From Solirubrobacteraceae bacterium (GTDB lineage: Bacteria; Actinomycetota; Thermoleophilia; Solirubrobacterales; Solirubrobacteraceae), in the NCBI GenBank assembly GCA_036561505.1, contig DATBPE010000176.1:1941-65940 (forward strand): a stretch of 64,000 bases of DNA, read 5' to 3'. A program made the position numbers and the translations under genes. The notes under the pieces were generated by a model. That model did no database searches. It was not told the DNA's origin and saw nothing but the letters and a program-made list of their open reading frames with translations. Below are positions 3,419 to 27,655 of this stretch, in pieces (the stretch's first letter is position 1; each line of letters opens with the position of its first letter).

Positions 3419-3751
3419 TCAGCCGCCCGGACCCTCGGCGTAGTTGCGCATCGCCTCGATCACCGGTGCCAGCATCCGTCCCTTGTCGGTCAGCCGGTAC
3501 TCGACCGTCGGCGGGCTGGAGGGGATGACGTTGCGCGCCAGCAGCCCCGCGGCCTCCAGGTCACGCAGACGCTCGGAGAGCATCCGCGGCGAGATGCCGG
3601 CGACCGCGTCAGCGAACTCGTTGAAGCGCAGCGCCCCGGAAAGCGCCGCGTAGATGATCGATAGCTGCCAGCGCCGCTCCAGCAGGTCAGCGGTTCTGCG
3701 GACCTGCAGTGGAACGGGCTGGCATCTACGAGACTTGATGGGCGACATCAC
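3419..3751 (-). CDS. HxlR-family winged-helix transcriptional regulator
   Basis: DLLERRW, LRFNEF, ISPRMLSERLRDLE and PPTVEYRLT.KG motifs; overlaps the end of lon. Confidence 0.9.
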   Translation of the reverse strand: MMSPIKSRRCQPVPLQVRRTADLLERRWQLSIIYAALSGALRFNEFADAVAGISPRMLSERLRDLEAAGLLARNVIPSSPPTVEYRLTDKGRMLAPVIEAMRNYAEGPGG

Positions 3752-6227
3752 GGGTGGGCTCGAGTGCCCGATCGAGGACCTCCTGGACGGTCATCACCGG
3801 GTGGAAGGTCATCTGCTCACGGACCTCCTCGGGGATGTCGTCCAGATCGCCGCGGTTTCGCTCGGGCAGGATCACATCGGTGAGGCCGGCCGCGTGCGCG
3901 GCGAGGACCTTCTGCTTCAGGCCGCCGATCGGCAGCACCCGTCCCTGGAGGGTCACCTCTCCGGTCATCCCGACGGTGTGCTTGACGGGGCGACCGGAGA
4001 GCAGCGAGGCCATCGCGGTGACCATCGTCACGCCGGCGCTCGGCCCGTCCTTGGGGATCGCACCGGCAGGAACGTGCACGTGGAACTCCTGTCCTTCAAA
4101 GGCGCCTTCCTCGATCCCGATCTCCTCGGCGTGCCCGCGCACGTAGGAGAGGGCGATCTTGGCGGACTCCTTCATGACCTCCCCGAGCTGGCCGGTGAGC
4201 ACCAGGCCGGATGAGTTAGAGCCGCCACTTCGCATCGCGGTGGCCTCGACGAACAGCACGTCACCGCCGGTACCGGTCACCGCCAGACCTGTCGCGACAC
4301 CGGGTGTCGCGGTGCGCGAGGCGGACTCCTGGAAGAACTTCTGGCGTCCGAGCGCGTCGCGCACGGTCTCCTGATCGATCTTCACGGGGATCTCGATCGT
4401 CGCCCTGGCCTTTGCGGCCTTGGCCTTGCTCTTCTTGGCGGGCTTCTTGGGATCCTCGAGTGGGAGCTTGCCGTTGCTCTCGGCGGGGGACTTCTTTGAG
4501 TCCTTGCCGGGCGGCTTGGGCTGCTCGCCTGTCTGGTTTTGAGCCGAGGCGATCTTCGTGGCGGTCTTGCGCAGCAGTGTCCCAAGCTCGCGCTCGAGGC
4601 TGCGCACGCCGGCCTCGCGGGTGTACTCCGCGATGACGGTCCGCAGGACATCGTCGGGGATCTCGACCTCGCCCTCGCGCAGGCCGTTGCGGTCACGCTG
4701 GCGTGGCCACAGGTAGCCCTTCGCGATCGCGAGCTTCTCCTCTGAGGTGTAGCCGTCGAAGCGAATCACCTCCATGCGGTCCAGCAACGGACCGGGGATC
4801 GTGTCCGCGACGTTCGCGGTCGCTATGAACATCACCTGGCTGAGGTCGAGCTCGACGTCGAGGTAGTGATCGCGGAAGGAGTGGTTCTGCGCGGGGTCCA
4901 GGACCTCGAGCAGCGCCGCGGATGGATCTCCACGCCAGTCCGCGCCGACCTTGTCGACCTCGTCGAGCAGGATCACGGGGTTCATCGTCTTGGCGTCGCG
5001 CAGGGCCCTGACCAAGCGTCCTGGCAGGGCACCGATGTAGGTGCGCCGGTGCCCGCGGATCTCCGCCTCGTCGCGCACGCCGCCGAGGGACATGCGTACG
5101 AACTCACGGCCCAGGGCACGGGCGATCGACTCGCCGATCGAGGTCTTGCCGGTACCCGGGGGTCCGATCAGGGTCAGGATCGCACCGGACTTGGGGTCGG
5201 CCTCGATGCCGCGGTCCTGACGCAGCTTGCGCACCGCCAGGTACTCGGTGATGCGGTCCTTGACGTCTTCCAGTCCAGCGTGGTCGGCGTCCAGCACCGC
5301 CCGTGCGCCCACCGGGTCCAGGTGCTCCTCCGAGCGCTTGGACCATGGGACAGCGATCAGCCAGTCAAGGTAGGTGCGGATCATCGATGACTCGCCCGTC
5401 TGCTCGCCCATCCGCTCTAGGCGACCCAGCTCCTTGTGGGCCTGCTCGTTGACTTCCTCGGGCATCCCGGCGGCCTCGATCTTTGCGCGGTACTCCTCGA
5501 CGATCGAGCCCTCGTCCTCGTCGAGCTCCTTGCGGATCGACTCCATCTGCTTGCGCAGGAAGTACTCGCGCTGCTGCTTCTCAGCGCCCTCCTGCACGTC
5601 CTCGCGGATGCGCTTTCTGACCTGCAGCTCCGCGAGTGACTCGCGCTGCAGCTTGACCGCGAGCTCCAGACGGTCGGTGACGTCGGTCGTGCGCAGCAGC
5701 TGTACCTTCTGCTCGTAGGACAGGTTGGGGGAATAGCCGGCCGAGTCCGCCAGGGGGCCAGGCTCGACGATCGCCCGCAGGAACGCCGCGATCCGCCCGT
5801 CGTCGCCGCGAAGCTCGAGGATCTCCTCGACGATCGCGCGGTATTCGCGTTCGAGATCGCGCGTGCGCCCGTCGACGGGGACCTCGTCGGGACGCTCGTC
5901 GACCTCGACGCGTAGCTCGCCGTCGGGACCGGTCTGGGCGGCTCCGATCAGCGCGCGGTGCGCACCGGATAGAGCGACCGCGCGACCGCCGCCGGGCAGA
6001 CGCAGCCGGTCCTCGACCTCGGCGATCGTGCCGACCTCTAGAAACTCGTTCTCGTGTCGTGGGACGAGCACGACCCGCTCGTCCTCGCCGACCTCAACCG
6101 TGAGCGTTATGCCCATGTTGGGGAAGACGACCGTGTCGTCCATCGGGATCAGCCGCAGCAGCGGCCGGGAAGTCGGGGAAGACGGCCGATCGGCTGTCTG
6201 ATTGTTGTTCTCTGGAGATGAGGGCAT
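3726..6227 (-). CDS. lon: Lon protease (endopeptidase La)
   Basis: LON N-domain, Walker [10 protein letters not shown], Walker B ILLDEVDK, catalytic PKDGPSAG and PIGGLKQK motifs. Confidence 0.97.
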
Positions 6228-6557
6228 CAGGTATACGCTCCATATGAGCTTACGAAAGTGTAGTTAGTATAGCCAAGATTGTTGCTGATGCAAGTACCTC
6301 TGTTGGTGGCTCGATTAGAGGACCGCCACACCGCGGACCGATCGAGGCAGGGGCGCGCGTTTTAGCCTCACGGATTGCTGTGCAGCAGCCAGCACCCGCC
6401 GGGTTTCCCGGGCAGGAGGAAAGGACGGTCCTACCTGCTGCTCCGACCCGTATGAAGCCTCCAGGACAGCGCCGGATGACCATGCCCGAGGACCGCGTCC
6501 CGGTCGGTGTCCACCGGACGGAATAAGCGCTGTCCATGGACCCATAAGCGAGATTTC

Positions 6558-9521
6558 TTGAGTCAAGCTTCATTCGAGCCTACGATCACCGAGCTGCTCG
6601 CCGCGGGGGAGCCCGACCTGGCTCGGGCGCGGGTGATCGAGTGGATCGCCGATCACGGTGAGTCCTTTAGTGCTCGTCAGCTGTATCAGGACTGGCTGAT
6701 CGCCGGCGGCGCCCCGGCGCTCCTACGCGCTGCACTGAAAGGATGGATCGACCTCCATGGCCGGCGTCCCGAGGCCAAGTTTCTCTACCGCGCTTGGCTT
6801 GACGGCGGCGGCGATCTCGAGCTCGTCAGGAGGCCAATAGAGAATTGGGTTGCTCTTCACGGTGAAGGCCCGGACGCCGGATTGGTCTACCAACCCTGGC
6901 TGCGGGCCGGCGGTGAGCTCGATCTCGTCAGAGAGCGCCTCACTGCCTTCCTCTGCCTCCATTGGAATGTGGCGGCGATCGATCTCGTCTACGGCGCCTG
7001 GCTGAAAGCCGGAGGTGAGCCGCAGCTGGTGAGGCGGCCACTGGAGAATTGGCTTGCCCGCGAAGGCCAGGATCAACCGGACACAAAGTTCCTGTTCACG
7101 GCCTGGCTTCACGGCGGTGGGGATCTCGAGCTCGTACGCGCGCCGATCGCCACCTGGGTCGCCAAGCGCGCTGAGGTAAAGGACACCAACTTCGTCTTCG
7201 AGGCATGGATCGCCCATGGCGGCGAGCTCGATCTCATCCGCGACCCGCTCAGGCGCTGGCTTGACCTTCACGGCCGTGAGCACGTCGACGCCGGGTTTTT
7301 GTATCGCGCGTGGCTGGAGGCCGGCGGCGAGCTCGATCTTCTCAGGGAGCCGCTTGTCCAATGGCTCGACCTCCACGCCGAGAACCCCGACGTTGGCATC
7401 GTCTACCGAGCCTGGCTCAGTGCCGGCCACGGCGAGCCGCAGCTCGTCCGCGGCGCGCTTGTGCGCTGGCTTCACCAGCACGCACACAGCGCCGGCGCGG
7501 AGCTCGTCTGCGGCGCCTGGCTGGAGGCCGGCGGCGAGCTCGATCTGGTCAAGAAGCCGCTTGCCCGGTGGCTCGCGAGCGACCACGAGGCGCCCGAGGA
7601 CTGCAGGGTCTACCACCTCTGGTTGAAAGCCGGCGGCAAGCTCGAGCTCGTACGAGAGCCGATTCGCCGCTGGCTTTCAGATCACGGCGATGAGCCACAG
7701 GCCCGGTTCATCTATGACGCCTGGCTCACGGCCGGGGGTGAACGCGAGCTGGTGCAAGCGTCCCTTGTGCGCTTCCTCCAGTGCAACGGCACACTCCCTC
7801 AGACCTGTTTCGTCTTCCGCGCCTGGCTGGCGGCGGGAGGCGAGCCGGATCTGATCGCAGAGGCGCTGTCGGGCTGGCTTTCAGAGCACGGCGCCACCGA
7901 GCCAGAAACGACATTCGTTTTCTGCGGCTGGCTGGCCGCCGGCGGCGCACTGCAGCACATCAGGGAGCCGATCCTGGCGTGGATGAACGTACACGCGCAG
8001 ATCAAGGACACGAGCTTCGTCTTTGCGGCCTGGCTTGACGGGGGCGGCGAGCTCGAGCTGATCAGAGCACCGATCGTGCGCTGGCTCGCCAAGCACGCGT
8101 TGGCGGCGCAGGCGCGGTTCGTCTTTCGGGCGTGGCTTGACGCACGCGGTGAGGTGCAGTTCGTGCGCGAGCAGATCATTGCCTGGCTTGGGCGCCACTC
8201 CGACCAAAGCGCCGTCAACCACCTCTGCCGGGCCTGGCTTGACGGGGGCGGCGAGCTCGATCCTGTCAGGCGACTACTCCCCGGTTGGCTGCAGAAGCAC
8301 GCACAGCTCCCCGAGGCACAGTTCCTCTACTGCTCCTGGCTTTCAGCCGGGGGGGAGCGCGCGATCATCGCCAAGGCACTCGTCGCCTGGCTTTCGGTGC
8401 ATGCCCCCGAGATGGCCGCCGGCAACGTCTACCGAGCATGGCTTGACTCGGGCGGGCGCCACGAGGTCATCCGCCCGGGACTCGAGCGCTGGCTCCAGAC
8501 CCCCGCCGCCGTGGACAAGACCGCGCTGTACATATACCGGTCGTGGCTTCACAGCGGCGGCGATCGGGAGCTGGTAAGCGGACCGCTGAGCGCATGGTGT
8601 GCGGCCAATACCGCCGCCGGTGCAGCCCAGTTCGTGTTTGGGTCCTGGCTTTCAGCCGGCGGCGCACCCGCTCACATCCGTGCGCCATTTGGCCGCTGGC
8701 TTGCGGTCTTTGCCCGCCGCCAGCACGCCGGATCGATGCTGCGCGGCTGGCTCGACCACGACGGAGACCTCGAACTGGTGCGTGCGCCGATCGCGCTCTG
8801 GCTAGAGCACAACGGCCTCTGGGTTGGCGCCCAGTTCATCTTCCGCTCCTGGCTTTCGGCCGGCGGTGAGCTCGATTTTCTGCGCCAGCCGGTCGCCCGC
8901 TGGCTCGAGCAGAACAGCCGCACGCTAAACGCCCACTACTTCTTCGGGACCTGGCTCTCTGGCGGCGGTGAGCTCGATCTGCTCGCCCCGGCGCTCGTCG
9001 CCTGGTGCGCCGTGCACGCCCAACACGAGCAGGCCAGCTTCGTCTACCAAGCCTGGTTGCGCCACGACGGGGACCCGGCGCTCGTCAGAGAGCCGATGCT
9101 TGGCTGGCTGGCCGTTCGCGGGCGCAAACGTATCGCCAGCTGTGTCATTTGCGCCTGGCTGAACCGCGGCGGCGACCAGGAGCCGGTAGAAGAGCCGATC
9201 CGCCGCTGGCTCGCCGCCCAGGGTCACACACCACAGGCCAGTTTCCTCTTTCGAGCATGGCTCGACAGTGGCCGCGATCTCGAGGTCATACGCCCGCCGA
9301 TTCGCCGCTGGCTGACGTGCAAACCATGGCCTGAGGCGGTCAAGGCGGTGTACGAATCGTGGCTTGCCGCCGGCGGTGAGCTCGAGCGGCTGCGGGCGCC
9401 CGCGACCCGCCCGATCAATCAGAGACGCGGCTTCACCCCCACCCGCACGCAGACGAGGGGCTCACAGCGGCCGCCCGGCCTGGCCTGCGCACACGGGAGC
9501 ACAGTTGATCGCCACCTTTGA
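6558..9521 (+). CDS. Trp-rich 34/35-aa tandem helical repeat protein 1 (cap + 26.5 repeats), unknown function
   Basis: Repeat consensus AxFvYxAWLxAGGELELVREPIxxWLxxHxxxxx, counted by hand. TTG start at 6558 chosen because SFEPTITELLAAGE aligns with the N-termini of the two paralogs; the ORF is open from 6507. Confidence 0.9.
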   Translation: MSQASFEPTITELLAAGEPDLARARVIEWIADHGESFSARQLYQDWLIAGGAPALLRAALKGWIDLHGRRPEAKFLYRAWLDGGGDLELVRRPIENWVALHGEGPDAGLVYQPWLRAGGELDLVRERLTAFLCLHWNVAAIDLVYGAWLKAGGEPQLVRRPLENWLAREGQDQPDTKFLFTAWLHGGGDLELVRAPIATWVAKRAEVKDTNFVFEAWIAHGGELDLIRDPLRRWLDLHGREHVDAGFLYRAWLEAGGELDLLREPLVQWLDLHAENPDVGIVYRAWLSAGHGEPQLVRGALVRWLHQHAHSAGAELVCGAWLEAGGELDLVKKPLARWLASDHEAPEDCRVYHLWLKAGGKLELVREPIRRWLSDHGDEPQARFIYDAWLTAGGERELVQASLVRFLQCNGTLPQTCFVFRAWLAAGGEPDLIAEALSGWLSEHGATEPETTFVFCGWLAAGGALQHIREPILAWMNVHAQIKDTSFVFAAWLDGGGELELIRAPIVRWLAKHALAAQARFVFRAWLDARGEVQFVREQIIAWLGRHSDQSAVNHLCRAWLDGGGELDPVRRLLPGWLQKHAQLPEAQFLYCSWLSAGGERAIIAKALVAWLSVHAPEMAAGNVYRAWLDSGGRHEVIRPGLERWLQTPAAVDKTALYIYRSWLHSGGDRELVSGPLSAWCAANTAAGAAQFVFGSWLSAGGAPAHIRAPFGRWLAVFARRQHAGSMLRGWLDHDGDLELVRAPIALWLEHNGLWVGAQFIFRSWLSAGGELDFLRQPVARWLEQNSRTLNAHYFFGTWLSGGGELDLLAPALVAWCAVHAQHEQASFVYQAWLRHDGDPALVREPMLGWLAVRGRKRIASCVICAWLNRGGDQEPVEEPIRRWLAAQGHTPQASFLFRAWLDSGRDLEVIRPPIRRWLTCKPWPEAVKAVYESWLAAGGELERLRAPATRPINQRRGFTPTRTQTRGSQRPPGLACAHGSTVDRHL

Positions 9522-12500
9522 ACCATCGCCCGGCGAGCTGCTCGCCAACCGTGAACTGAGCCTGATCCGCGATCGAGTGGCCGCCTGGTTGAAGCAGAAC
9601 GCCACCGAGCTCGGCTGCAGCTACCTGTTTGACGAATGGCTGAGCCAGGGCGGGGACTCAGAGCTCCTACGCGAACCGATTCGCCGCTGGCTGGAGATCC
9701 ACCGCGAGCATCTGGACGCCCGCTTCCTCTACAAGGCGTGGCTTACGGCCGGCGGCGAGCTGGAGCTCGTGCGCGAGCCGATCCTCGCCTGGATCGCCCG
9801 GCACGCCGACATCCAAGCAGCCGGATTCGTCTACTCCGCGTGGCTTGACGGCGGCGGCGATCTGGAGCTCGTGCGCGAGCCGATCCGCCGCTGGATCGCC
9901 GCACACGGCTCGAGCGAGCCGGACTCGGGGTTCCTCTACAAGGCGTGGCTCGCGGCCGGCGGCGAGCTCGATTTCGTGCGTGAGCCAATCACAGGCTGGC
10001 TGGCGCACGGCGCCAACCACACCGAAGTCAACTACCTCTACGGAGCATGGCTTGAAGCCGGCGGTGAGCTCGATTTCGTGCGCGCAGGCGTGCACCGGTG
10101 GTTGGAGGAGCACGGCGAGACACCGCACGCGAGCTTCGTCTACAACGCCTGGCTGCGAGCCGGCGGCGAGCTCGAGCTCGTGCGCAAGCCGATCGCCGAG
10201 TGGTTCCTCACCAACGCCGAGTTCCCCTCAGTCGAGTTCCTCTTCAAGGCGTGGCTCGAGGCCGGCGGAGAGATACAGATCCTGCGCGAGCCGATGCGCC
10301 GCTGGATTGAGAAAAACAGCGACGGCGAGAACGCCCACTTCGGCTACTGCGCCTGGCTAGAGGCCGGCGGTGAGCTGGAGCTCGTACGTGAACCGATCCT
10401 CGGGTGGCTCGAGCATCACGGCGAGGAGCCCCAAGCAATGTTTCTCTACCACACCTGGCTGGGCGCAAACGGTGATCTGGACACGGTCCGCCGGCCAATC
10501 GGCAGATGCCTGGCCAAGCACGGCGAGGCGCCCGACGCTCACCTCATCCACGGAGCCTGGATCGCCGCCGGGGGTGAGCTCGATCTGCTGACAGACCACC
10601 TGCGCCGCTGGTTTGCCGCCAACGCCGAGCAGAACGAGGCCACCAAGTTCCTGCTCAGCGCCTGGTTGGACGGCGGCGGTGCGCTGGAGCTGGTGCGCGA
10701 GACCGTGCAGATGTGGACAGATGCCCACGCGGAGAGCCTGGATGAGTCATTCGTGCTGTGCTCGTGGCTGCAGGCGGGCGGTGAGCCGGAGCTCCTGCGC
10801 GAGCCGATCCGCCGTTGGCTCGAGCTTCACGCCACCAGCGAACAGGCCCAGTTCCTGTATTCGGCCTGGCTCTCCCACAAAGGCGAACGAAAGCTCGTCA
10901 ACGACGCCATCCTCGCCTGGCTTCAGGCGAATCCCACCGACGCGAAGGCCGTCTACGTCTTCGCCGCATGGCTCAGCTGCGGCGGCGGCCTCGACTTGAT
11001 GCGCCAACCGATCCGCCGCTGGTTGGATGGCGAGGCCAGCGGCAGCGAGCCTGCCCAGTTCCTCTACCGGGCATGGCTCGACGCGGGCGGCGAGACAGAC
11101 CTCCTACGCGAGGCGATCAGCGGCTGGTGTGAGAAGAACCCCGGGTCGATCAGCACCGAATTCGTGCTGCGCTCCTGGTTGCAGGCCGAAGGTGAGATCG
11201 AGTTCGTGCGCGAGCCAATGCGAGCCTGGATCGAGGCGTTTAGCTCCCAACAACACTCCGGCTCGATGTACTGCGCCTGGCTTGACGGCGGCGGCGATCT
11301 GGAGCTCGTGCGCGAGCCGATCCGCCGCTACCTGCAGACCAACGCGAGCGTCCGCGAGAACACCCAGTTCCTGTACCGCTCATGGCTTCAGTCCCGCGGC
11401 GAGACAGAGCTCATCCGCGAAGCGGTCCGACGTTGGCTTCACCGGCACGCCTGCAGCCTGCACGCAAGCTTCCTCTACAAGGCCTGGCTCGAGGCCGGTG
11501 GCGAGACGGATCTGGTGCGCGAGCCGATCCGTGCATGGATCGCCAGATACCCGCGCAACGCGCGAGCCGGATTCGTCTACTGCGCCTGGCTTGCCGGCGG
11601 CGGCGACACCGCGCTCGTGCGCGATGCGATCGGATCGTGGTTTGTGACGCACGCGTCGTGGAGACCGGCCCATCAAACCTTCCAGGCGTGGCTTGACGCC
11701 GGCGGGGAGCTCGGCATCCTCAGCACCCCAATCGCGACTTGGATAAAACGCCACCACATCAGCAAGGACGCACGCCTGCTCTACCGCGCCTGGCTTGCGC
11801 GCGGCGGCGATCTGGATCTGGTGCGCGAGCCGATCCGTGCGTGGCTGTCAGTGTTCGCCGGAAACCCGCAGGCCGCCATCCTGATACGAGCCTGGCTTGA
11901 CTCCGGCGGCGAGCCGGCGCTCGTGCGAAAAGCGCTGCGTAGCTGGCTCTCACATCCACAGCGCCCGCTCGCCGCGAGAGTGCTCTGCAGGGCGTGGCTC
12001 ACGGCCGGTGGAGAGCGAGACCTAGACGGCCTGGAGCGCCACATGAGCGACGGCGCGCCACACACGAGGATTCCCGTCCCGCTCGGCGCGGGCAGGTCGG
12101 AGCATGAGATCGCCGATGTGTCGACGTGCGCTAACGAGACGTAGTTGAGCCCAGACTTCACCCCCTCGACGGCTGAGCTGCTCGCCGCGGGCGAAATCGA
12201 CCGCGTGCGCGAGGAGTTGATCGGGTGGCTCGCCGACCACGGCGAGGAACTCGCCAGCAGCTACATCTACCCAGAGTGGCTGCAGTTCGGAGGAGAGCCA
12301 GATCTGGTGCGCGAGCCGATCCGCCGCTGGCTAGCAGCCCACCGCGAGCATGCCGACGCCCAGTTCGTCTACAAGGCGTGGTTGGACTACGGCGGCGAGC
12401 TAGAGCTCGTGCGCGACGCGATCGCGCAGTGGCTCTCGGTCCACGCCAACGAGCCCTACGCCGGCTTCGTCTATGCCCCGTGGCTCGTGGCCGGCGGCGA

Positions 12501-14960
12501 GCTGGAGCTGGTGCGTGAGCCGATCAAGGCGTGGCTCGATCTCCACAACGACCTCGGCGAAGACACCGGCTTCCTGCACAAGGCGTGGCTTGCGGCCGGC
12601 GGCGAGCTGGAGCTCGTGCGCGAGCCGATCAGAGCGTGGTTGGCAGCCAACGCCAAGGAGCAGTTCGCGCACTTCGTCTACTGGGCGTGGCTTGACGGGG
12701 GCGGTGAGCTGGAGCTCGTGCGCGAGGCGATCATCGCGTGGCTCGAGCGCTACGCCACCGAGCAGAGCGCCGGATTTGTCTACCCCGTGTGGCTTGAAGC
12801 CGGCGGCGAGGTCGAGCTCGTACGCGAGGGGCTGCGGCAATGGCTCGAGCTCCATGGCGCTGAGCTCGGCGCCGCCGAGTTCCTGTATGAGGGATGGCTC
12901 GACGTCACCGGTGAGCTGGAGTTCGTGCGCGAGCCGATCACTCGCTGGCTCGAGAACTGCGCCTGCTCAAACGACGCCCAATTCGTCTACCGCGCCTGGC
13001 TGCGGGCCGGCGGCGATCTGGATCTGGTGCGCGAGCCGATCACCGGCTGGATCTCTACCCACGGCACCGAGCAGTCCGGCGCGTTTGTCTACAAGGCGTG
13101 GTTGGACGCCGGGGGAGAGCTCGATCTGCTGCGCGAGACGATCGCGCTGTGGCTCACCAAGCACGCCGGCGAACACGACAGCGTGTTCCTGTATCGCGGA
13201 TGGCTGCGCGCCGGCGGCGAGCCGCGACTCGTGCGAACGGCACTCCAGCGGTGGCTTTCAGAGCACGGCGCGAGCGTCGAAGGACAATTGATCTACAGCG
13301 CCTGGATCGACGTCGCCGGCGAGCTCGATCTGATCAGAGAGCCCCTGCGCCGCTGGTTTGCCGCCAACGGCGAGCACCAGGAGGCGACAAAGTTTCTGCT
13401 GTGCGGCTGGCTTGACGCGGGCGGCGAGCCGGCCCTTGCACGCGAAGCGCTGGAGCGGTGGGTGCGCGCACGCGTGGACACCGTCGAGGTGTCCTTCGTG
13501 CTGTGCTCCTGGCTTGACGCCGGGGGAGAGCGCGAACTGATGCGAACGGCGATCGCGCGCTGGCTCTCCCAGTACGCCACGGTCCCCTCGGCACAGTTCG
13601 TCTGTGTCTCCTGGCTGGCGGCCGGCGGCGAGCTCGATCTCGTGCGCGAGCCGATCCGGGCGTGGCTGGAGGCCAACCCGCTGCTGAACTCCGCCGGGGT
13701 GCTGATCAGCCGCTGGCTCGACCGCAAGGGCGAGCGCAAACTGGTGCGCGAGTCGCTACACCGCTGGCTCACCGCCCACACCAACAACGTGCACGCCCAC
13801 TTCCTCTACCGGGCGTGGTTGGACGCCGGCGGGGAGGTCGACGACGTCCGCGAGCCGTTGCGCCGCTGGCTTGAAACACATGCCGCCTACACCGCCGTTG
13901 ACTTCCTCTGTGTCTCCTGGCTTGCCGGCGGCGGCGAGCCCGAGCTGATCGCCGAGCCGGTACGCCTGTGGCTGGCGGCCAAGGCCACCACCGAGCCCGC
14001 ACGGGACCTGTGTTTTCGCTGGATCGACGCCGGCGGTGATCTCGGGGTCGTGCGCGAGCCGCTGCGCCAGTGGCTCGCCGAGCAGGGCACCACCGAAGAG
14101 GCCCAGTTCCTCTACCACGTGTGGCTACGCGCCGGCGGTGAACTCGGGCTGGTACGCGAGCCGATCACCGCCTGGCTTGCGCTGCACCGCCAGGCGCCCT
14201 GTGCCCAGTTCGTCTACAAGGCATGGCTCGATGGGGGCGGCGAGCTCGAGCTCGTACGCCAGGAGATCCTCGAATGGCTCACCGAACACGAACTTTCAGC
14301 GCCGGCTGGGTTCGTCTACCCGGCTTGGCTGAATCGCGGCGGCGATCTGGATCTCGTGCGCGAGTCGATCCGCCACTGGCTTTCAGAGCACGAGCGCGAG
14401 CACTCGACGCGCTTTCTGTACCGCGCATGGTTGGAGGCCAAAGGCGAGCTCGGCCTCGTACGCGAGCCGATCTCCAAATGGCTCGATCGGCACTCCAGCA
14501 CCCACGACGCCAGGGACGTGCTGCAGTCGCTGCTGAAGGCCGGCGAACCCTGGCGTGAGGTGAGCGAACCGGTATGCCGCTGGCTGGACGCCCACGGCCA
14601 GGGCTCCTCGGCCAGCTTTCTGTATGAGACCTGGCTTGACTGCGGCGGCGATCTGGAGCTCGTGCGGGAGCCGATCAGAGGCTGGCTGGCCGCGCACGCC
14701 AAGAGCGCCAACGCCAAGTTCGTCTACCGCTCGTGGCTGGATGGCGGCGGCGATCCGGAGCTCGTGCGCGAGCCGATTCGCCAGTGGCTGCGCCTGCACG
14801 CCCGCGTCCAGAACTCCACCTTTGTCTATCAGGCTTGGATCAAGCGCGGCGGCGATCTGGAGCTCGTGCGCGAGCCGATCTCCCGCTGGCTGCGCGCCGG
14901 TCCGACCCCCACCCAGACGAGGATCCTGCGCGAAACATGGCTCGCGGCCGGCGGCGAGGC
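6670..14960 (+). repeat. Degenerate coding tandem repeat, 102-105 bp unit
   Basis: Core tggct..c.gccggcggcgagct.ga.ct.gtgcgcgagccgatc...c.ctggct recurs at about 102 bp spacing through all three genes. Confidence 0.9.
9505..12144 (+). CDS. Trp-rich 34/35-aa tandem helical repeat protein 2 (cap + 23.5 repeats), unknown function
   Basis: Same repeat. TTG at 9505 with GGGAG just upstream; N-terminus TFEPSPGELLA matches the paralogs; overlaps the gene 1 stop by 17 bp. Confidence 0.9.
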   Translation: MIATFEPSPGELLANRELSLIRDRVAAWLKQNATELGCSYLFDEWLSQGGDSELLREPIRRWLEIHREHLDARFLYKAWLTAGGELELVREPILAWIARHADIQAAGFVYSAWLDGGGDLELVREPIRRWIAAHGSSEPDSGFLYKAWLAAGGELDFVREPITGWLAHGANHTEVNYLYGAWLEAGGELDFVRAGVHRWLEEHGETPHASFVYNAWLRAGGELELVRKPIAEWFLTNAEFPSVEFLFKAWLEAGGEIQILREPMRRWIEKNSDGENAHFGYCAWLEAGGELELVREPILGWLEHHGEEPQAMFLYHTWLGANGDLDTVRRPIGRCLAKHGEAPDAHLIHGAWIAAGGELDLLTDHLRRWFAANAEQNEATKFLLSAWLDGGGALELVRETVQMWTDAHAESLDESFVLCSWLQAGGEPELLREPIRRWLELHATSEQAQFLYSAWLSHKGERKLVNDAILAWLQANPTDAKAVYVFAAWLSCGGGLDLMRQPIRRWLDGEASGSEPAQFLYRAWLDAGGETDLLREAISGWCEKNPGSISTEFVLRSWLQAEGEIEFVREPMRAWIEAFSSQQHSGSMYCAWLDGGGDLELVREPIRRYLQTNASVRENTQFLYRSWLQSRGETELIREAVRRWLHRHACSLHASFLYKAWLEAGGETDLVREPIRAWIARYPRNARAGFVYCAWLAGGGDTALVRDAIGSWFVTHASWRPAHQTFQAWLDAGGELGILSTPIATWIKRHHISKDARLLYRAWLARGGDLDLVREPIRAWLSVFAGNPQAAILIRAWLDSGGEPALVRKALRSWLSHPQRPLAARVLCRAWLTAGGERDLDGLERHMSDGAPHTRIPVPLGAGRSEHEIADVSTCANET

Positions 14961-15141
14961 GAACGCCGTGATGCTCAGCCCGGGCCGCGAGACGCCGCCC
15001 GCCATCGGCCAGACCCCGCGGCGGCGGCGAGCCGACCATCCCCAGCGAACGCCCCGCACGCCGATCGCCCGCGCAGGTGCACGCCCAGCGCCGGGAGCGG
15101 GCGAGCATCCCGCTCAGCGCCGGCGGCGGAAGCTCACCTGA
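12145..15141 (+). CDS. Trp-rich 34/35-aa tandem helical repeat protein 3 (cap + 26.5 repeats), unknown function
   Basis: Same repeat. TTG directly after the TAG of gene 2; N-terminus DFTPSTAELLAAGE; Arg-rich C-terminal tail. Confidence 0.9.
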   Translation: MSPDFTPSTAELLAAGEIDRVREELIGWLADHGEELASSYIYPEWLQFGGEPDLVREPIRRWLAAHREHADAQFVYKAWLDYGGELELVRDAIAQWLSVHANEPYAGFVYAPWLVAGGELELVREPIKAWLDLHNDLGEDTGFLHKAWLAAGGELELVREPIRAWLAANAKEQFAHFVYWAWLDGGGELELVREAIIAWLERYATEQSAGFVYPVWLEAGGEVELVREGLRQWLELHGAELGAAEFLYEGWLDVTGELEFVREPITRWLENCACSNDAQFVYRAWLRAGGDLDLVREPITGWISTHGTEQSGAFVYKAWLDAGGELDLLRETIALWLTKHAGEHDSVFLYRGWLRAGGEPRLVRTALQRWLSEHGASVEGQLIYSAWIDVAGELDLIREPLRRWFAANGEHQEATKFLLCGWLDAGGEPALAREALERWVRARVDTVEVSFVLCSWLDAGGERELMRTAIARWLSQYATVPSAQFVCVSWLAAGGELDLVREPIRAWLEANPLLNSAGVLISRWLDRKGERKLVRESLHRWLTAHTNNVHAHFLYRAWLDAGGEVDDVREPLRRWLETHAAYTAVDFLCVSWLAGGGEPELIAEPVRLWLAAKATTEPARDLCFRWIDAGGDLGVVREPLRQWLAEQGTTEEAQFLYHVWLRAGGELGLVREPITAWLALHRQAPCAQFVYKAWLDGGGELELVRQEILEWLTEHELSAPAGFVYPAWLNRGGDLDLVRESIRHWLSEHEREHSTRFLYRAWLEAKGELGLVREPISKWLDRHSSTHDARDVLQSLLKAGEPWREVSEPVCRWLDAHGQGSSASFLYETWLDCGGDLELVREPIRGWLAAHAKSANAKFVYRSWLDGGGDPELVREPIRQWLRLHARVQNSTFVYQAWIKRGGDLELVREPISRWLRAGPTPTQTRILRETWLAAGGEANAVMLSPGRETPPAIGQTPRRRRADHPQRTPRTPIARAGARPAPGAGEHPAQRRRRKLT

Positions 15142-16079
15142 ACGTCCTCCTGCTCCAGACGCTCCTCGACCTCCGCCGAGGAGCGCAGGCTGCGTTCATC
15201 CGCGGAGGTCAGCGGGCCGCCGAAGAGGCTGCGCGGCCACAGCCGCCGAGCACGCACCACGTTCACCTCCGCGGCGAGCAGCGTTACCTGGCTGCCGAGA
15301 TACAGCCACGCCAGCAGCCCCAGCACCAGCGCGAAAAAACCCGAGGTCTCCTGCGCCCGGCGGATCACGTGATCGACGTAGTAGCCGCCGATGTACTGCA
15401 GCAACTGCCAGCAGACCGTGGCGAGGATCACTCCGGGCAACAGGTCCCTGGTGTGCACCTCCTCGACGGTCAGTAGCCGAAAGGCGGTGAAGAACAGCAG
15501 CAGGTTCGCCGCCAGCGCCACCAGCACCCCCGCCAGTACCCCCGCCAGCGCCAGCGCCCCGTGGGTCTGCGCCGTCACGTACCCGGCGGCGGCGGTCGAG
15601 AGGACCATCAGCGAGCCCAGCACCGCCAACAGTCCGAGGCCGCGCAGCCGTTGCAAGGCGAAGTTCGGGCGATGCTTGTGCGGGACGTGCCAGACCTGGT
15701 TGAAGGCGTTCTGGGCGGCGCCGGTTATCCCCAGGCCGGCAAGGACAGAGGCGATCAGGCCGATCGCCAGTCCCAGGCCGCTGCCTTTGAGGGAGCGCAC
15801 GTTGCGCTCGAGCTGAACGCCGATGATCGGAAACTCGCTGAGGGTGGAGTGAAGGACGCTGTGCTGGGCGGCCGGGTTGCCCTGCAGCACGAAGCCGAGG
15901 ATCGTCACGAACACCAGCAGCAGCGGGAAGATCGAGAGAAAGCCGTAGTAGGCGACGAGTGCCGCCAGCTGGCTGGCCTGATCGTCTGAGAACTTCTTCA
16001 GCACCGCCAGTGGGAAGGACAGCCAGCGCCGGCTCTGTTGGTAGCGCTCAAAGCGCCGCGGCTGCTCGGAGAGCTTCAT
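15114..16079 (-). CDS. YihY/virulence factor BrkB family membrane protein
   Basis: KFSDDQASQLAALVAYYGFLSIFPLLL and LGLLAWLYLGSQVTLLAAEVN motifs. ATG at 16079 chosen; the longer ORF overlaps the sigma gene. Confidence 0.9.
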   Translation of the reverse strand: MKLSEQPRRFERYQQSRRWLSFPLAVLKKFSDDQASQLAALVAYYGFLSIFPLLLVFVTILGFVLQGNPAAQHSVLHSTLSEFPIIGVQLERNVRSLKGSGLGLAIGLIASVLAGLGITGAAQNAFNQVWHVPHKHRPNFALQRLRGLGLLAVLGSLMVLSTAAAGYVTAQTHGALALAGVLAGVLVALAANLLLFFTAFRLLTVEEVHTRDLLPGVILATVCWQLLQYIGGYYVDHVIRRAQETSGFFALVLGLLAWLYLGSQVTLLAAEVNVVRARRLWPRSLFGGPLTSADERSLRSSAEVEERLEQEDVQVSFRRRR

Positions 16080-16184
16080 GACCGTGGGGTCGGCCGCCGC
16101 ACGGCGCGCCTGGCTGTGGGCGGGCGCGGGGCGGGCTGTGATCGGGAGGGGGGGTGTGGGGAGCGATTCACGCGACATCCATAC

Positions 16185-16856
16185 GTGTCTACCCAATCCG
16201 CCAGCGAAAAAAGAGTCCTCGACGGAAACTGGTCGATCCGGTCCTACCGGACCATAGCGGCCGAAGATCCCGCCGAGGAGGTCGCCGTCGTCTCCCAGCA
16301 GAAGCGCGAGATTCTGTTGCGGGCCTACCGGCAGTGGCTGCGCCTCGAGGACCTCGAAGATTGCCTGAGCCAGGCGACGCTCGAGCTGGTGGCACGCGCC
16401 CGGCGGGGAGGCAGCTTCTCCGGAGCCGGCCACATCGCCAACGCGCTCGAGCAGAAGTTCCTCTCGCGCATACACGACCGCCGCCGCGCGCTTGGCGGGC
16501 GCAGCGCGATGGAGGCGGCGCTCGACGGCGCATTGCAACTGGGCGAGCCCAACAGCGGCGGAGTCGACATCGCCGACGTGCGCGCCAGCACCGAAGAGCG
16601 CGTCGCGGGGCGAATGGAACTGGGTCAGGTGACCGAGGCCGCCAAGCGCCTAACAGCCGACCAGCGGCTCGTACTCGCCTGCCAGGTCGCACTGGACATG
16701 AGCTGCCGCGAATTCTGCGATCAGTTCGGCTGGTCACCGGAGAAGTACCGCAAGGTGGCTCAGCGTGGCCGCACACGCCTGCGGCTGCTCAGCGGCGCTG
16801 AGCGTGTCCCACTTTCGAGTACGGCGTCGGAGATGAACACGAGGACCCACCTATGA
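16185..16856 (+). CDS. Sigma-70 family (ECF-like) RNA polymerase sigma factor
   Basis: Region-2-like EDLEDCLSQATLEL and region-4 HTH LTADQRLVL...MSCREFCDQFGWSPEKYRKVAQRGRTRLR. Start uncertain (GTG 16185). Confidence 0.7.
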   Translation: MSTQSASEKRVLDGNWSIRSYRTIAAEDPAEEVAVVSQQKREILLRAYRQWLRLEDLEDCLSQATLELVARARRGGSFSGAGHIANALEQKFLSRIHDRRRALGGRSAMEAALDGALQLGEPNSGGVDIADVRASTEERVAGRMELGQVTEAAKRLTADQRLVLACQVALDMSCREFCDQFGWSPEKYRKVAQRGRTRLRLLSGAERVPLSSTASEMNTRTHL

Positions 16857-17019
16857 AATTCACACTCTCCGCTCATAGGCTTGTCCTCAGGGACGCCAGT
16901 GGCCACTCGCACGGACAGTCGCTGGGTGTTTCCGCTCAGCACGCAAACGGTCGCGGTCAGAGTTCATCCCCGCTCAGACCGTCGACCGTTTGCGTGTATC
17001 TGTCAATGGTGGTGAAGTG

Positions 17020-17748
17020 ATGTTTTCCCGCCGCGCGCCAAGTGAGGTTTACCGCGTCTACGGTGAGGATGACCTCTTCACCGATTCCGAGGAGCCCACC
17101 AACACATACCCACCAGCGGCTCCCGAAGAGCCACCGGTCCTCGAGCGTCTCTCAGAGGAACACCAACCGGCGAGCTCTTTTCACGAGTACGACACAACCG
17201 AATACGAGCCGGTAGTCCAGCAACCCGCTCCCGAGCCGGCCTACATTCCCCCGCGCCCGCACCAGCAGGAGCCTGAGCTCGACGAGCTGGCGCTCGCCTC
17301 GGGCGGCCTCTACGGAAAGGCCGAGGGCCAGCGGCGCAACCTCGGGCTGTATGCCCTCGGGGTGCTCCTGGCGCTGTTGCTGATCGGTGTGATCGCGACC
17401 GGTGTACTGAAACCCTCACCCACCCAAAGTCACACAAACACGAGTAATCCGTCCGCTGTACAAAACGTGGCAGTCGCGCCGTCGACGCCAAGTGTCACTA
17501 CCCAGCCGCCCTCCAGGCGCGCCACCCCAGCGGCCAGGCGACACCGTCCGCGTCCCCTCAACAGCTACCGTCCGCCAGCCGTGCACCACAGCGCGCCGGC
17601 TAGCTCCCCACCGCGTGGCGCTTTCACCACCGCACCGTCACACTCCGCGCCGGCACCGGTGAGCCAACCTGTCGCCCCGGTGAGCGCTCCGGCACCAAGC
17701 TACGCCGCGCCAGCCTCCTCGGGCCCCGAGTTCAGCTTCGAGCATTAG
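17020..17748 (+). CDS. Single-pass membrane protein with acidic N-terminus and Pro-rich C-terminus
   Basis: One TM segment (LGLYALGVLLALLLIGVIA); ends in PEFSFEH; first gene of the T4SS-like operon. Confidence 0.7.
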   Translation: MFSRRAPSEVYRVYGEDDLFTDSEEPTNTYPPAAPEEPPVLERLSEEHQPASSFHEYDTTEYEPVVQQPAPEPAYIPPRPHQQEPELDELALASGGLYGKAEGQRRNLGLYALGVLLALLLIGVIATGVLKPSPTQSHTNTSNPSAVQNVAVAPSTPSVTTQPPSRRATPAARRHRPRPLNSYRPPAVHHSAPASSPPRGAFTTAPSHSAPAPVSQPVAPVSAPAPSYAAPASSGPEFSFEH

Positions 17749-17755
17749 GGCCGCC

Positions 17756-18607
17756 GTGTCCACAAGGGCCTCTGTGACAGTAACCCCAAGGCCATTGTGG
17801 CGCATCCGGCTGAGCCGCGTGTGGACACGCTACCTGCTGTATCTACTCGCCGCCTGGGGGCTTGCCGCGAGCGCCCGATTTGCGATCGCGCCGCCGACCC
17901 CGCCGACCCCGAAGATCCCGCACATCGAAACTCCCGACCGCGCCGCGGAAGGATTCGCCGCGCTTTTCACCCGCCACTATCTGAGCTGGAACTCGAGCTC
18001 ACCAGAAACCTACCGCAAGGAACTCGAACCGTTTCTGGGGGCGAGTTTCGTAGGTCAAGTGGCCACACAGCTGCCGACCAAGGGCGAGCAGCAGGTGCAG
18101 TGGACCGAAGTGGTGCAGTCGCGTGAAGTGAAGGCCGGCGAGCACGTCTACACCGTCGCCGCGCAAACCGACACCGCTGGGTTGCTGTACCTGACCGTCG
18201 ACGTGATGCGCCAGTCGGCGGGCAGCCTCGCGCTGGCGAGCTATCCCGCGTTCGTCGGCGCTCCGACCTCCACGACACTGGAGAACCTCACCGAACACCT
18301 CAAGGACGTCGAAGAACCGCGCCTATCCACGGTGGTGAACCGTGCGCTCAGTAACTACCTCAGCGGATCGGCATCCGATTTGGCGGCGGACCTCTCCAGC
18401 GAAGCCCAGGTTTCGCTACCCGGCATGTCACTGGCGCTGCAGTCCGTCTCCCAATTGAAGTGGCTCCCCGGCCACCAGTCGGTGTTCGCGGTGGCGCTCG
18501 CCAGAGACCAGCGCGGCGCCCAATACACCCTCACTTACGAGATGGACATCTCCTACCAGCAGGGCCGGTGGGAGATATCCGCGATCCAGATGAACCCCGA
18601 CACCTAA
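17756..18607 (+). CDS. Conjugal transfer protein, TcpC/VirB8-like
   Basis: N-terminal TM, AEGFAALFTRHYLSW, two NTF2-like halves ending in GRWEISAI; position upstream of TcpE/VirB4-like genes. Confidence 0.7.
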   Translation: MSTRASVTVTPRPLWRIRLSRVWTRYLLYLLAAWGLAASARFAIAPPTPPTPKIPHIETPDRAAEGFAALFTRHYLSWNSSSPETYRKELEPFLGASFVGQVATQLPTKGEQQVQWTEVVQSREVKAGEHVYTVAAQTDTAGLLYLTVDVMRQSAGSLALASYPAFVGAPTSTTLENLTEHLKDVEEPRLSTVVNRALSNYLSGSASDLAADLSSEAQVSLPGMSLALQSVSQLKWLPGHQSVFAVALARDQRGAQYTLTYEMDISYQQGRWEISAIQMNPDT

Positions 18608-18621
18608 CAAAGGAAATCGAG

Positions 18622-19026
18622 ATGAACCAGCCGCCGACACGCAAGCTCTATTTCAGACCTCGCCCGCAGCTCGCAAGGATCTGCGCCGGCATGTTCGTCG
18701 TGCTGGTGCTGGCGGGCGCCTGCCTTGCGCCCTCGAGCGCCCTCGCTGGCCCGAAGGTCGGATCCCCCAAAGGGACCCCCACGACAGAATCAAGCGGCGG
18801 GTTGGCGCTGGAAAGCGCTGCGGCCAAGGCCAGCACCACCGGACGCAGCGTGGCGATGAGCCTGATCGGCCTGGCGTTCGCGATCGCCGCGATCGTGCTG
18901 GCCTTCCGGCGCGACTTCAAGGAGGCCGGCGGTGTGCTGTTGATCGGGGTACTCGCGGTCTTCCTGGCCAACGGCACCGGAGTGAGCGTGCTCAAGGAAA
19001 CGGTCGAAAAGCTGTTCGGTCCGTGA
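18622..19026 (+). CDS. Small membrane protein, VirB2/TcpD pilin-like
   Basis: AAGGA RBS; signal-like segment ending ALA, then two hydrophobic helices separated by FRRDFKE; synteny. Confidence 0.55.
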   Translation: MNQPPTRKLYFRPRPQLARICAGMFVVLVLAGACLAPSSALAGPKVGSPKGTPTTESSGGLALESAAAKASTTGRSVAMSLIGLAFAIAAIVLAFRRDFKEAGGVLLIGVLAVFLANGTGVSVLKETVEKLFGP

Positions 19027-19057
19027 TCGTGGGCACGGCGAACATAGGGGTGTCTAG

Positions 19058-19783
19058 ATGAGCAGCCCTGACACGGTCGAGATCCGCTCCTATCGCCGGG
19101 TATTCGACCTCGAGCGGCGGATCTACCGCATCGATCGGATGCGCCTGAACCCGGGCGGCATCCCCGTCCGCGGGGTGCTCTATTTCATCCTGGTGCTACT
19201 GGCGCTGCTCGTGCTCGGGGTGATGCCCGTCACGCGGCTGGCCGTGCACCTGCTGCCCTGGTACATGCGTGACTTGGCGCTACCGGGAGGGCTGGCGGCG
19301 CTACTGACGATAATCCGCGTCGAGGGACGGCCGTTTCATCTCGCGGCCTTCTCGCTGGCGCGCTATCTGTCCGGGCCACGTCAGCTCTCGGGGCTGCGTC
19401 CCTGCCAACCGATTGGGACGCGCTGGGAACCACAGGAGCTCCTGTTTCTGCCCGACGGCTCCGATGCGCGTCTGCGGCGGCTGCGCTTCACCGGTCCCGG
19501 GGCCGCGCTCGTCACAGTCGCCCACGAGCGTGCGGTCTGGCCCGGGTCGGCTCTGCGCGGAATGCCGCGGTTGACGCTGCGTGCCTTGGCGGCGCCCAGG
19601 ACGCTCCCCAAAGGAAAGGTGATCGAGCTGCGCCGCGGGGTGTGCATGCACGTTCACCCAAGCGCCCCGCCCGCGCGCCGCGTACGGGTACCCGCCGGTG
19701 GCGCCCACGCGCGTGGGGTGAGCGGGCGCTCTGACCACACCCAGCGCCGGCCGGGCGGCAAACCGCGTTGGGGATACGGGTAG
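19058..19783 (+). CDS. TcpE-family (VirB3-like) conjugal transfer membrane protein
   Basis: IRSYRRVFDLERRIYRID N-terminal motif, two TMs, then EGRPFH; lies immediately before the VirB4-like ATPase. Confidence 0.75.
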   Translation: MSSPDTVEIRSYRRVFDLERRIYRIDRMRLNPGGIPVRGVLYFILVLLALLVLGVMPVTRLAVHLLPWYMRDLALPGGLAALLTIIRVEGRPFHLAAFSLARYLSGPRQLSGLRPCQPIGTRWEPQELLFLPDGSDARLRRLRFTGPGAALVTVAHERAVWPGSALRGMPRLTLRALAAPRTLPKGKVIELRRGVCMHVHPSAPPARRVRVPAGGAHARGVSGRSDHTQRRPGGKPRWGYG

Positions 19784-19788
19784 CGCGG

Positions 19789-26192: not shown

Positions 26193-26231
26193 CCCGCTGG
26201 CGCCGTCTGTAGCGGCGCTGTAGTATCCCGG

Positions 26232-26398
26232 CCGTCCATAGGTCGGTGGTCAAGGGAAGCCGGTGAAAGTCCGGCGCGGACCCGCCACTGTGACCGGGGA
26301 TGCCAACCGCGGCGCGAAAGCGCAGCCACTGATCGGCCGCTCGGCGGATCGGGAAGGCGCGGAGGGTGGGCCCGGGAGCCAGGAGACCTGCCTCCGAC
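26232..26398 (+). promoter_or_regulatory. Cobalamin (B12) riboswitch
   Basis: AAGGGAAgccGGTGaaagtCCggcgcggacCCGCCACTGTGA ... GCCACTG ... GGGAAGGC ... AGCCAGGAGACCTGCC B12-box, upstream of an ECF operon. Confidence 0.95.
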
Positions 26399-26434
26399 CC
26401 AAGCCCACAAGCCCTCGTGGAAAGGGGTTGGCTC

Positions 26435-27655
26435 ATGCTCAAATCTCCTCGTATCACCGTGGCTCTCTGTGCCACCACGCTAGTGCTCTCGCTCGGGTGC
26501 GCGAACTCGTTTGCCGCTGCGATTACGGTCAAAGTGCGCGTCGAGGGCTCCACCAACACGCTGTTCGAAGGCAACGTGACGACCCAACCAGAAAAGTTCG
26601 AAACCACATCGAGCGGAGGCGCTTTTCCCTGCAACTACAAGGAAAACGGCCCTAGTTCGAAAGAAAAGACGACCTTCGAAAATGGCGGCAACGAAAGCGC
26701 TACTCCCACTACCGCGCTGCACGCTGCCGCGCTTGCCGCTGGCCTGACGTTCAACGCGGAATGGTTTGGCTCCGGCAAAACCGCAACCGAAAACCCCGGC
26801 GACTTCTTCGTGACCCAGGTGGGCACGGACCTCAATCAGAGCGAAGAACCCTTCGACTCGTGGGGTTACGCGGTCAACGACACAACCGCGGTCGTCGGTG
26901 GTTGTCAGATCGCATTGGCTCCCGGCAACGAAGTGCTGTGGGCCTACAACTACTTCAACCTCAAGCACCTGCTGAGCATCGGCGGCCCTGCGATCGTGAC
27001 CGCGGGGGTGCCGTTCACCGTGCACGTGACCGACGGGCAGAACGGCGAACCCATCTCCGGTGCCGCGATCGGCGAGCTGCTCTCCGGGGTCACCGCACCG
27101 ATCCCCGCCAGCGCCACCACCGACATCAACGGCAACACCACGATCACCCTCGCGCGCAACGGGGCGGTCACACTGAAGGCGACCCGCGCTGACTCCGTGC
27201 GCTCCAACGGTCTGGCTGTGAACGTCGAGGAAAAGGCGTGTGCCTGCGCTGGACCTCCCTCCTCACAGCCCCCCCCGACGACCTCCAGCACCGATGTGGC
27301 GAAGGTCGGTGGGGTACATGGCGGGCACCGCTACACCCATCGTTCGGCCCCACGCGTGCTCAGCGGAACCGTCGCGATCCCGGCAGGCGGGACGCTGCGC
27401 GACGTGCGCATCAGCCTCACACGCCGCCGCCACGGCCGCTGCTTTGCCTTCAGCGGATCGCGAGGACGCTTCGTGCGCGACCACAAGTGCCGGCCTTCGT
27501 TCTTCAGCGTGGGAGGATCGGAGTCCTTCAGCTACCTGCTGCCGGCACGCCTGCCGGCCGGGCACTACACCTACGACATCGAGGCGATCGACAGTTCCGG
27601 AAAGCCCACCAAACTCGTCGGCGGCACCAGCCATGTCGTCTTCAGCGTCGGCTAG
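26435..27655 (+). CDS. Secreted protein with DUF4430-like (transcobalamin beta-domain-like) and Ig-like domains
   Basis: Signal peptide; VKVRVEG, FFVTQVG, SWGYAVN and EVLWAY motifs; first gene after the riboswitch. Confidence 0.65.
   Translation: MLKSPRITVALCATTLVLSLGCANSFAAAITVKVRVEGSTNTLFEGNVTTQPEKFETTSSGGAFPCNYKENGPSSKEKTTFENGGNESATPTTALHAAALAAGLTFNAEWFGSGKTATENPGDFFVTQVGTDLNQSEEPFDSWGYAVNDTTAVVGGCQIALAPGNEVLWAYNYFNLKHLLSIGGPAIVTAGVPFTVHVTDGQNGEPISGAAIGELLSGVTAPIPASATTDINGNTTITLARNGAVTLKATRADSVRSNGLAVNVEEKACACAGPPSSQPPPTTSSTDVAKVGGVHGGHRYTHRSAPRVLSGTVAIPAGGTLRDVRISLTRRRHGRCFAFSGSRGRFVRDHKCRPSFFSVGGSESFSYLLPARLPAGHYTYDIEAIDSSGKPTKLVGGTSHVVFSVG

Follow-up and report, generated by a model that had tools for sequence, protein, structure and literature searches.

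The window analysed here is a stretch of 64,000 nucleotides from a Solirubrobacteraceae bacterium (GenBank assembly GCA_036561505.1, contig DATBPE010000176.1, positions 1,941 to 65,940). It contains an array of three consecutive genes, A, B and C, which encode giant proteins made almost entirely of a tryptophan-rich 34-residue repeat. A preliminary description, written from the letters of the window, had presented them as a possibly undescribed alpha-solenoid family of modular binders with no evident catalytic partner. We find that effector-STAND NTPases of many phyla carry a C-terminal arm built of homologous repeats, which makes A-C candidate detached sensor arms. The array comprises the following features (window coordinates).

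6558..9521, + strand: gene A, 987 amino acids (aa); cap at 6558-6671, 26 full repeats at 6672-9338, half repeat, tail
9505..12144, + strand: gene B, 879 aa; cap at 9505-9615, 23 full repeats at 9616-11973, half repeat, predicted disordered tail
12145..15141, + strand: gene C, 998 aa; cap at 12145-12255, 26 full repeats at 12256-14916, half repeat, basic tail
6541..6600, + strand: 5' context of gene A, homologous to the starts of stand-alone repeat genes in three other genomes (G211, G338, G459)

All three genes are intact, co-oriented open reading frames (ORFs), and splitting of the proteins into units reproduced the architecture read earlier from the letters, namely a cap (37-38 aa in each), 26, 23 and 26 full repeats, a half repeat and a tail. 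The unit is 34 aa long in 63 of the 75 full units and 35 aa in 12, with conserved residues at W8 (74/75), glycine 13 (73/75) and W25 (71/75). A hidden Markov model (HMM) of the unit scores A, B and C at 1086-1245 bits, a circular figure since it was built from those same units; the best of 60 shuffled copies reached 5.8 bits. No transmembrane or signal-like stretch was detected in A-C, where the maximal 19-residue hydropathy is 1.1-1.3, in agreement with the preliminary description. A and B overlap by 17 bp, and the TTG start of C follows the TAG stop of B directly and in frame, with zero gap; this overlap and zero gap suggest translational coupling at both junctions. Readthrough at 12142-12147, where the stop of B is in frame with the start of C, would yield a fused solenoid of ~1,880 aa. 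The start of A at 6558 is backed by 75-83% DNA identity over 52-83 bp spanning the start in three other genomes. No Shine-Dalgarno-like motif was seen ahead of it (6541..6600), so that its start may be leaderless, and a promoter scan of 6100-6700 returned 0 sigma-70-like sites. The proteins are acidic (net charge -10, -32 and -36 for A, B and C). Their pairwise identity is only 38-44%, which marks them as old paralogues; a recent tandem triplication is rejected given this divergence and a B-C colinearity that is only partial. Codon scores are 0.43, 0.61 and 0.71 for A, B and C; the 777 training genes have a median of 0.70, and gene A lies near their low end. Two further stand-alone paralogues with the same type of cap, at C232 and C100, bring the genome to five copies.

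The repeat had been called unfamiliar, and no real match to that of A-C was found in Pfam, NCBIfam, PADLOC or PDB sequences. The candidates that did appear were rejected: Pfam SPP1_GP23-1, above its cut-off solely as the sum of many tiny pieces of 16-21 aa; the matches RXLR, Smr, Endotoxin_mid and PFL_1563; and DARPin matches in PDB sequences (expect value, E, >= 0.07). Searches of plasmid and phage collections with tblastn gave no match to the repeat, IMG/VR gave two loci (a complete fused STAND and a match that is short and weak), and the best score of an Atlas feature search was 0.79, which is lead level only. A profile of 44 repeat segments matched 935 representatives at E <= 0.001 among 1.84 billion; with this many representatives and no library family, the repeat is widespread but uncatalogued in the libraries searched. 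It is not described, by title or abstract, in the literature searched, where the supplementary tables of PMC13581612 and PMC11417379 may list the family; the families named in the available part of PMC11417379 are other repeats.

The repeat also occurs in fused proteins, and the counts that follow refer to the best 120 of 200 homologues of C. A central STAND-like NTPase region is common to 116 of these 120, as judged with a family HMM built from 102 of the 120 homologues themselves, and a Walker A motif is present in 105. The repeats sit behind the NTPase in 5-25 copies (median 9). Among the 100 homologues with a long N-terminus, 77 carry a PD-(D/E)xK-like motif under a strict pattern, and Pfam matches identify caspase, trypsin, CHAT and metallophosphoesterase as other effector domains. 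Independent Pfam matches of the NTPase are to nSTAND5, nSTAND3 and AAA_16, mostly under the cut-off; PF25199 (nSTAND_NTPase5) was matched by 13 of 20 homologues at E < 0.05 and by one of the 20 above its curated cut-off. Sub-threshold scores to TPR_14 and HAT occur in a few fused homologues. Of 284 proteins fetched, 204 matched the NTPase HMM and 44 were C-terminal fragments carrying the end domain of the family; both features were missing from 32, and four had no repeat. A GTDB scan of 74 loci recovered the fused form in 55, from many phyla, and the stand-alone form in 16, all titled Solirubrobacterales or Solirubrobacteraceae; three were unclear or cut by a contig end. The C-terminal repeat arm of effector-STAND proteins is thus homologous to the repeats of A-C, and the earlier claim of a repeat without catalytic context does not hold. 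The order effector-NTPase-repeat is the Avs/NLR plan, as laid out in the available part of PMC13581612; the fused family had no match among the PADLOC Avs models. There is modest defence context around the fused genes: PADLOC matches amount to 16 of 137 neighbours at 35 loci, several of them to generic ATPase or reverse transcriptase (RT) models. These proteins (P0001-P0120, loci L095-L168) form a widespread effector-STAND family with 5-25 near-identical 34-aa repeats and a hypervariable position 2. In P0044, P0047 and P0235 the same repeat is joined to another NTPase scaffold (NB-ARC-like with CHAT, and EAD11 in P0044), which indicates exchange of the arm between types of STAND.

The stand-alone form was found in 24 of 400 genomes of the same genus (one match, in G314, being marginal, and one genome, G449, unpublished) and in 0 of 285 genomes from other genera of the order. 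Repeat ORFs were present in 37 of 38 regions fetched from 22 carriers and the source genome, giving 43 segments, 32 of which show the cap motif under a strict pattern; the repeat number reaches 39. On a single-gene tree of brkB the carriers, 22 of the 52 rows, are scattered and require at least 11 changes, a pattern suggestive of recurrent gain and loss. Split or frameshifted stand-alone genes occur at L077, L092, L093 and L094 and in G211 (C20, C33 and C38), and reflect either birth-and-death or assembly error. Genes of the short group are preceded, ~15-25 bp before the start, by a conserved short inverted repeat (CCCAAGCGTTTGGG-like; loci L030, L076, L080-L082 and L085-L088, with a variant in 31-repeat groups), a possible operator or promoter.

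The NTPase partner was sought at several levels. The proteins A, B and C contain no NTPase domain; the 38 fetched loci around stand-alone genes show no NTPase or end domain; a search for the cognate NTPase region in 401 genomes gave one weak P-loop match only; and the whole-family profile, run on five carriers (two of them single-contig), returned repeats and short Walker A matches only. These negatives speak against a sensor acting in trans, in which the arm would switch on an effector encoded by another gene (McrBC or a non-cognate STAND, for instance), as does the lack of any effector neighbour of A-C in the window. The same reading draws some support from the source genome being 89% complete and holding another STAND-like NTPase fragment at a contig end (G000:C202:2990-3895), distantly related to the fused family and matching the NTPase model at E 4.5e-16 over ~100 aa. 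It is also consistent with a co-oriented mcrB-mcrC-repeat gene cassette in G000:C232 (L031:5202-11563), G459 and G211 (also listed as L064 and L075), three genomes that are not sisters on the brkB tree. Within the cassette McrC is 66% identical and the repeat protein only 48-52%, and six of nine genomes with this type of McrC have no adjoining repeat gene. On balance we regard activation in trans as quite improbable.

Selection was compared across both forms. Gene A and its orthologues (~60% identity) differ with a ratio of nonsynonymous to synonymous substitutions (dN/dS; pairwise, by the method of Nei and Gojobori, NG86) of 0.35-0.36. Gene A is therefore under purifying selection (dN/dS 0.35), a feature that the preliminary description had left to be looked for. 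Over 27 pairs in seven orthologue groups dN/dS ranges from 0.19 to 0.72, and the ratio of nonsynonymous to synonymous differences (pN/pS) at the core positions is 0.04-0.16 in all five groups. The dN/dS of A and this core pN/pS, together with three intact kilobase ORFs, a dedicated N-terminal cap and a C-terminal half repeat, are hard to reconcile with decaying or selfish remnants of truncated STAND genes. We give that explanation very little credence, although the split and frameshifted copies in several relatives, which may be assembly errors, and the low codon score of A (0.43) would suit it.

Repeats of the fused arrays are homogenised, with a nearest-repeat DNA identity within a gene of 81% (median of 47 genes). 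Among 111 near-identical repeat pairs from 29 genes, pN/pS is 2.35 at position 2 (95% confidence interval, CI, 1.8-3.05) and 1.36 at position 6 (CI 0.97-1.79), with 0.42 at the outer positions of helix 2; the classes of position were defined once the profiles were known, so these intervals and those below are descriptive. The bootstrap was done over genes, since repeat pairs within one gene are not independent. Stand-alone arrays are not homogenised (median nearest-repeat DNA identity 0.64, 0 of 39 at >= 0.8). In three long groups the residues at positions 2 and 6 vary more from repeat to repeat of one protein than the outer positions do, and between orthologues they mismatch less often (9 v 24%, 4 v 18% and 45 v 67% for positions 2+6 and outer positions, respectively); the last pair is that of the A group, with a CI for the difference of -0.33 to -0.10. 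The 10-repeat group is reversed, positions 2 and 6 being the most variable (48% v 17%; pN/pS ~1.3). We read this as one helix-1 face that sets specificity and is fixed in some lineages and fast-changing in others. Positions 2, 3, 6 and 10 would line a concave binding groove. At position 2 the residues Q/S/G/R predominate (75% in fused arrays), and at position 3 F/Y (72-92%); position 6 carries net positive charge (+0.22 in stand-alone and +0.48 in fused arrays), and position 10, which shares this helical face, has mainly D/E/N. The idea of modular binders thus finds a counterpart in a binder-like pattern of variable positions.

Part of this pattern would equally suit a domesticated scaffold or adaptor (of Lon, for instance) that serves a protein complex of the host and is untied from defence. 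The long groups keep repeat number and order gap-free, with dN/dS of 0.19-0.35 and conserved positions 2 and 6, and one orthologue group adjoins a phosphotriesterase-family gene in four genomes (two by position). We consider this explanation rather unlikely: such a role sits poorly with a gene present, in scattered fashion, in only 24 of 400 genomes of the genus and with neighbours that vary between groups.

AlphaFold2 placed two helices in each unit, with a predicted local distance difference test score (pLDDT) of 82.8 for residues 1-302 of C. For the whole of B the mean pLDDT is 87.8 and the predicted template modelling score (pTM) 0.57; residues 849-879 fall below 50. The predicted fold of A-C is a capped two-helix alpha-solenoid, in line with the alpha-solenoid proposed before. 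Template modelling (TM) scores to solved chains are globally <= 0.42, including PUF (Foldseek TM ~0.41, root-mean-square deviation, rmsd, ~12) and PPR10 (TM 0.37-0.39). RESC-A was matched with a Z-score of 16.8 (rmsd 5.5, 302 aligned), HEAT and importin chains lying within ~2 Z. The best match in the Atlas was the RESC6 cluster, with TM 0.72 over 289 residues, which is under the tool's family-naming bar, and predicted TPR clusters there reached TM 0.53-0.61. The viral structure library held nothing at E < 0.001, and no TALE chains are among the fold-search matches listed, although the fold itself may still be TALE-like. As far as the models go, these matches are to generic solenoids, with scores common for helical repeats.

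It is here that the main rival has to be weighed, which is possible, if unlikely: a modular nucleic-acid reader, in which positions 2 and 6 of each repeat would contact one base of single-stranded RNA or DNA and F/Y3 would stack, in the manner of PPR and PUF proteins. Fused STANDs would then be sequence-programmed sensors. The free variation in repeat number (5-25 fused, up to 39 stand-alone) suits a linear ligand, and the residues at positions 2, 3 and 6, the RESC6, RESC-A and PPR10 matches, and two weak sequence matches point the same way. Neither of these last is significant (Rrp5 HAT, E 0.02; AvrBs3, a gapless alignment at a 34-residue period, E 0.11), and the latter aligns the repeat-variable diresidue (RVD) of AvrBs3 to the invariant W8-L9. 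The structure scores, moreover, fall in the range common for helical repeats, the proteins are net acidic with mostly D/E/N at position 10, and covariation between positions 2 and 6 is modest (rank 19 of 561 pairs, 333 units). In its full form, where positions 2 and 6 make up a PPR/PUF-like single-stranded code by which nuclease-STANDs sense the sequence of invaders and the genus uses free binders of 20-39 modules, the proposal is unlikely; if true, it would provide a new natural scaffold for programmable targeting.

The array is flanked by two genes.

3726..6227, - strand: lon protease gene, left flank of the insertion (context only)
15114..16076, - strand: brkB/YihY-family membrane protein gene, right flank, overlapped for 28 bp by the 3' end of the convergent gene C; directly upstream of lon in most relatives

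The order sigma-brkB-lon is conserved in the genus, with lon inside the brkB flank in 45 of 52 loci at a median gap of ~210 bp. Repeat genes lie between brkB and lon at two of the 52 loci, here (three genes) and in G211 (one, same orientation), and their rarity at a conserved locus identifies the array as an insertion. The orthologues of A in G459 and G338 (colinear with it) are located elsewhere. Significance had been attached to the place next to lon; with repeat genes at so few brkB loci and the orthologues of A at others, a functional link with Lon is judged unlikely, and the Lon-adaptor version of the scaffold proposal loses ground with it. The spacer between lon and A contains no sequence that is repeated or mobile-end-like in the genome. 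A ~70-bp AT-rich element at 6229-6300, upstream of lon, is 80-98% conserved in dozens of relatives and is likely the lon promoter or operator. Neighbours of stand-alone copies differ between groups, and PADLOC matched six of 132 of them (three McrB, PDC-S27, UvrA and a group II intron RT).

On the other side of brkB, at 16038-24877, lie a sigma-factor-like gene, tcpC, a gene for a small membrane protein, tcpE, a virB4-like gene and one for a mobilome membrane protein. The same order is found in G211, and the region looks like a resident conjugation-like locus; TraG-D_C proteins are encoded on C52 and C43 of the source genome. That A-C are secreted effectors of this TcpC/TcpE/VirB4 system, with basic C-terminal tails as signal, strikes us as very improbable. 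The cluster of type IV secretion type begins ~2.6 kb away, the genome has the two TraG-D_C coupling proteins and the tail of C carries +10. The tails are nonetheless not conserved, being -5 in B and short or acidic in many orthologue groups, and repeat genes are uncommon at the sigma-brkB-lon locus, a general feature of the genus. Further along, a cobalamin riboswitch at 26230-26409 (Rfam RF00174, 80.4 bits) precedes a cluster at 26366-33820 that resembles an ECF-type transporter with secreted proteins (gene names from ORF reading).

We favour, with a probability of about 0.4, the reading that A-C are detached sensor arms that act as stand-alone, specific binders of foreign proteins. The 34-residue repeat would descend from the C-terminal arm of effector-STAND NTPases, where the arm itself is presumably the sensor. 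As capped alpha-solenoids, A-C would bind proteins of phages or other mobile elements, and binding alone would be the output, the ligand being sequestered and so neutralised without an enzyme of their own. The three proteins would form a co-translated stack of different specificities collected at one insertion site. This reading is preferred because it accommodates the ancestry, a variable face, a spread that is patchy and mobile, and the stacked paralogues. The mcrB-mcrC-repeat cassette, the one defence association to recur, also counts in its favour. All 13 STAND activators of Lee et al. are proteins, from a screen that offered phage genes only, according to the available part of PMC13581612.

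Several points weigh against detached sensor arms, among them a defence context that is weak and faces that are conserved in the long proteins. The genes around stand-alone copies are mostly not defence genes, and the repeat gene is often missing beside the McrC type described above. Conserved binding positions in the long groups, including that of A, fit a fixed host ligand equally well, and in the McrBC-linked group the CI of the inner-outer difference (-0.28 to 0.0) touches zero. Close orthologues are lacking for B and C (best 44-46%), and among the three genes the selection figures are those of A only. RESC, PPR10 and PUF, the nearest structural neighbours, are RNA-binding or RNA-complex proteins, though matched with generic scores. 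We know of no tested member of the fused family, and the proposal is built on sequence and models, its ligand, expression and phenotype being putative. No RNA run was listed among the sequencing runs that contain the sequence, which bears on expression in neither direction.

New here are the insertion of three genes, the signal of positive selection in fused arrays, the two regimes seen among stand-alone groups, a search of 401 genomes that did not turn up a cognate NTPase, and the cassette with McrBC. An uncatalogued repeat is thereby tied to an NLR-like family that is widespread and, in its arm, diversifies one or two positions of each repeat. In one soil genus this arm has become a set of free-standing, capped, multi-copy proteins for which no cognate ATPase was found. 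If A-C do neutralise invaders by binding alone, they would represent a non-suicidal, antibody-like bacterial defence; if nucleic acids are the ligand, the point of Lee et al. that some STANDs may sense non-protein molecules becomes testable. Either way, a very regular repeat with few specificity positions is a ready binder scaffold.

Among known systems, the closest relation is to the sensor arms of Avs STANDs (Lee et al. 2026, PMC13581612), in that an effector-NTPase-repeat family has a C-terminal array homologous to the repeats of A-C; unlike Avs STANDs, A-C have no NTPase and no effector, and they lack the 200-aa domain at the C-terminus of the fused proteins. The available part of that paper defines 684 sensor clusters, among which the fused family may be found. 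Fungal NLRs with highly internally conserved TPR, ANK or WD repeats (PMC4986451, available part) resemble the fused arrays, which are likewise homogenised and variable in repeat number, and show the same excess of replacements at interaction surfaces. The repeat is a different one here, the host is bacterial, and the stand-alone arrays are no longer homogenised. With TPR and HAT repeats A-C share a 34-aa unit, predicted to have two helices, and a terminal half repeat; their signature is W8-L9, GG, W25-L26 and H29, and no TPR or HAT match in Pfam was obtained at E <= 1. Solenoids of the PPR, PUF and RESC/OPR type, the nearest natural folds found, also present repeat-specific residues on one helix face, but A-C are acidic and have no sequence match to them, any code in A-C being putative. 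No PPR match in Pfam was found for A-C, and 63 of the 75 units have 34 aa as against the 35-aa PPR unit. PUF proteins have a 36-aa three-helix repeat, usually in eight copies; A-C gave no PUF match in Pfam and have two predicted helices per 34 aa in 23-26 copies. TALEs share the 34-aa period, GG and HG motifs and the terminal half repeat, whereas in A-C the RVD position is the invariant W8-L9 inside a predicted helix and the large N- and C-terminal domains are absent. By the tests run, A-C are thus like an NLR/Avs sensor arm and are not members of the Avs, TALE, PPR or PUF families.

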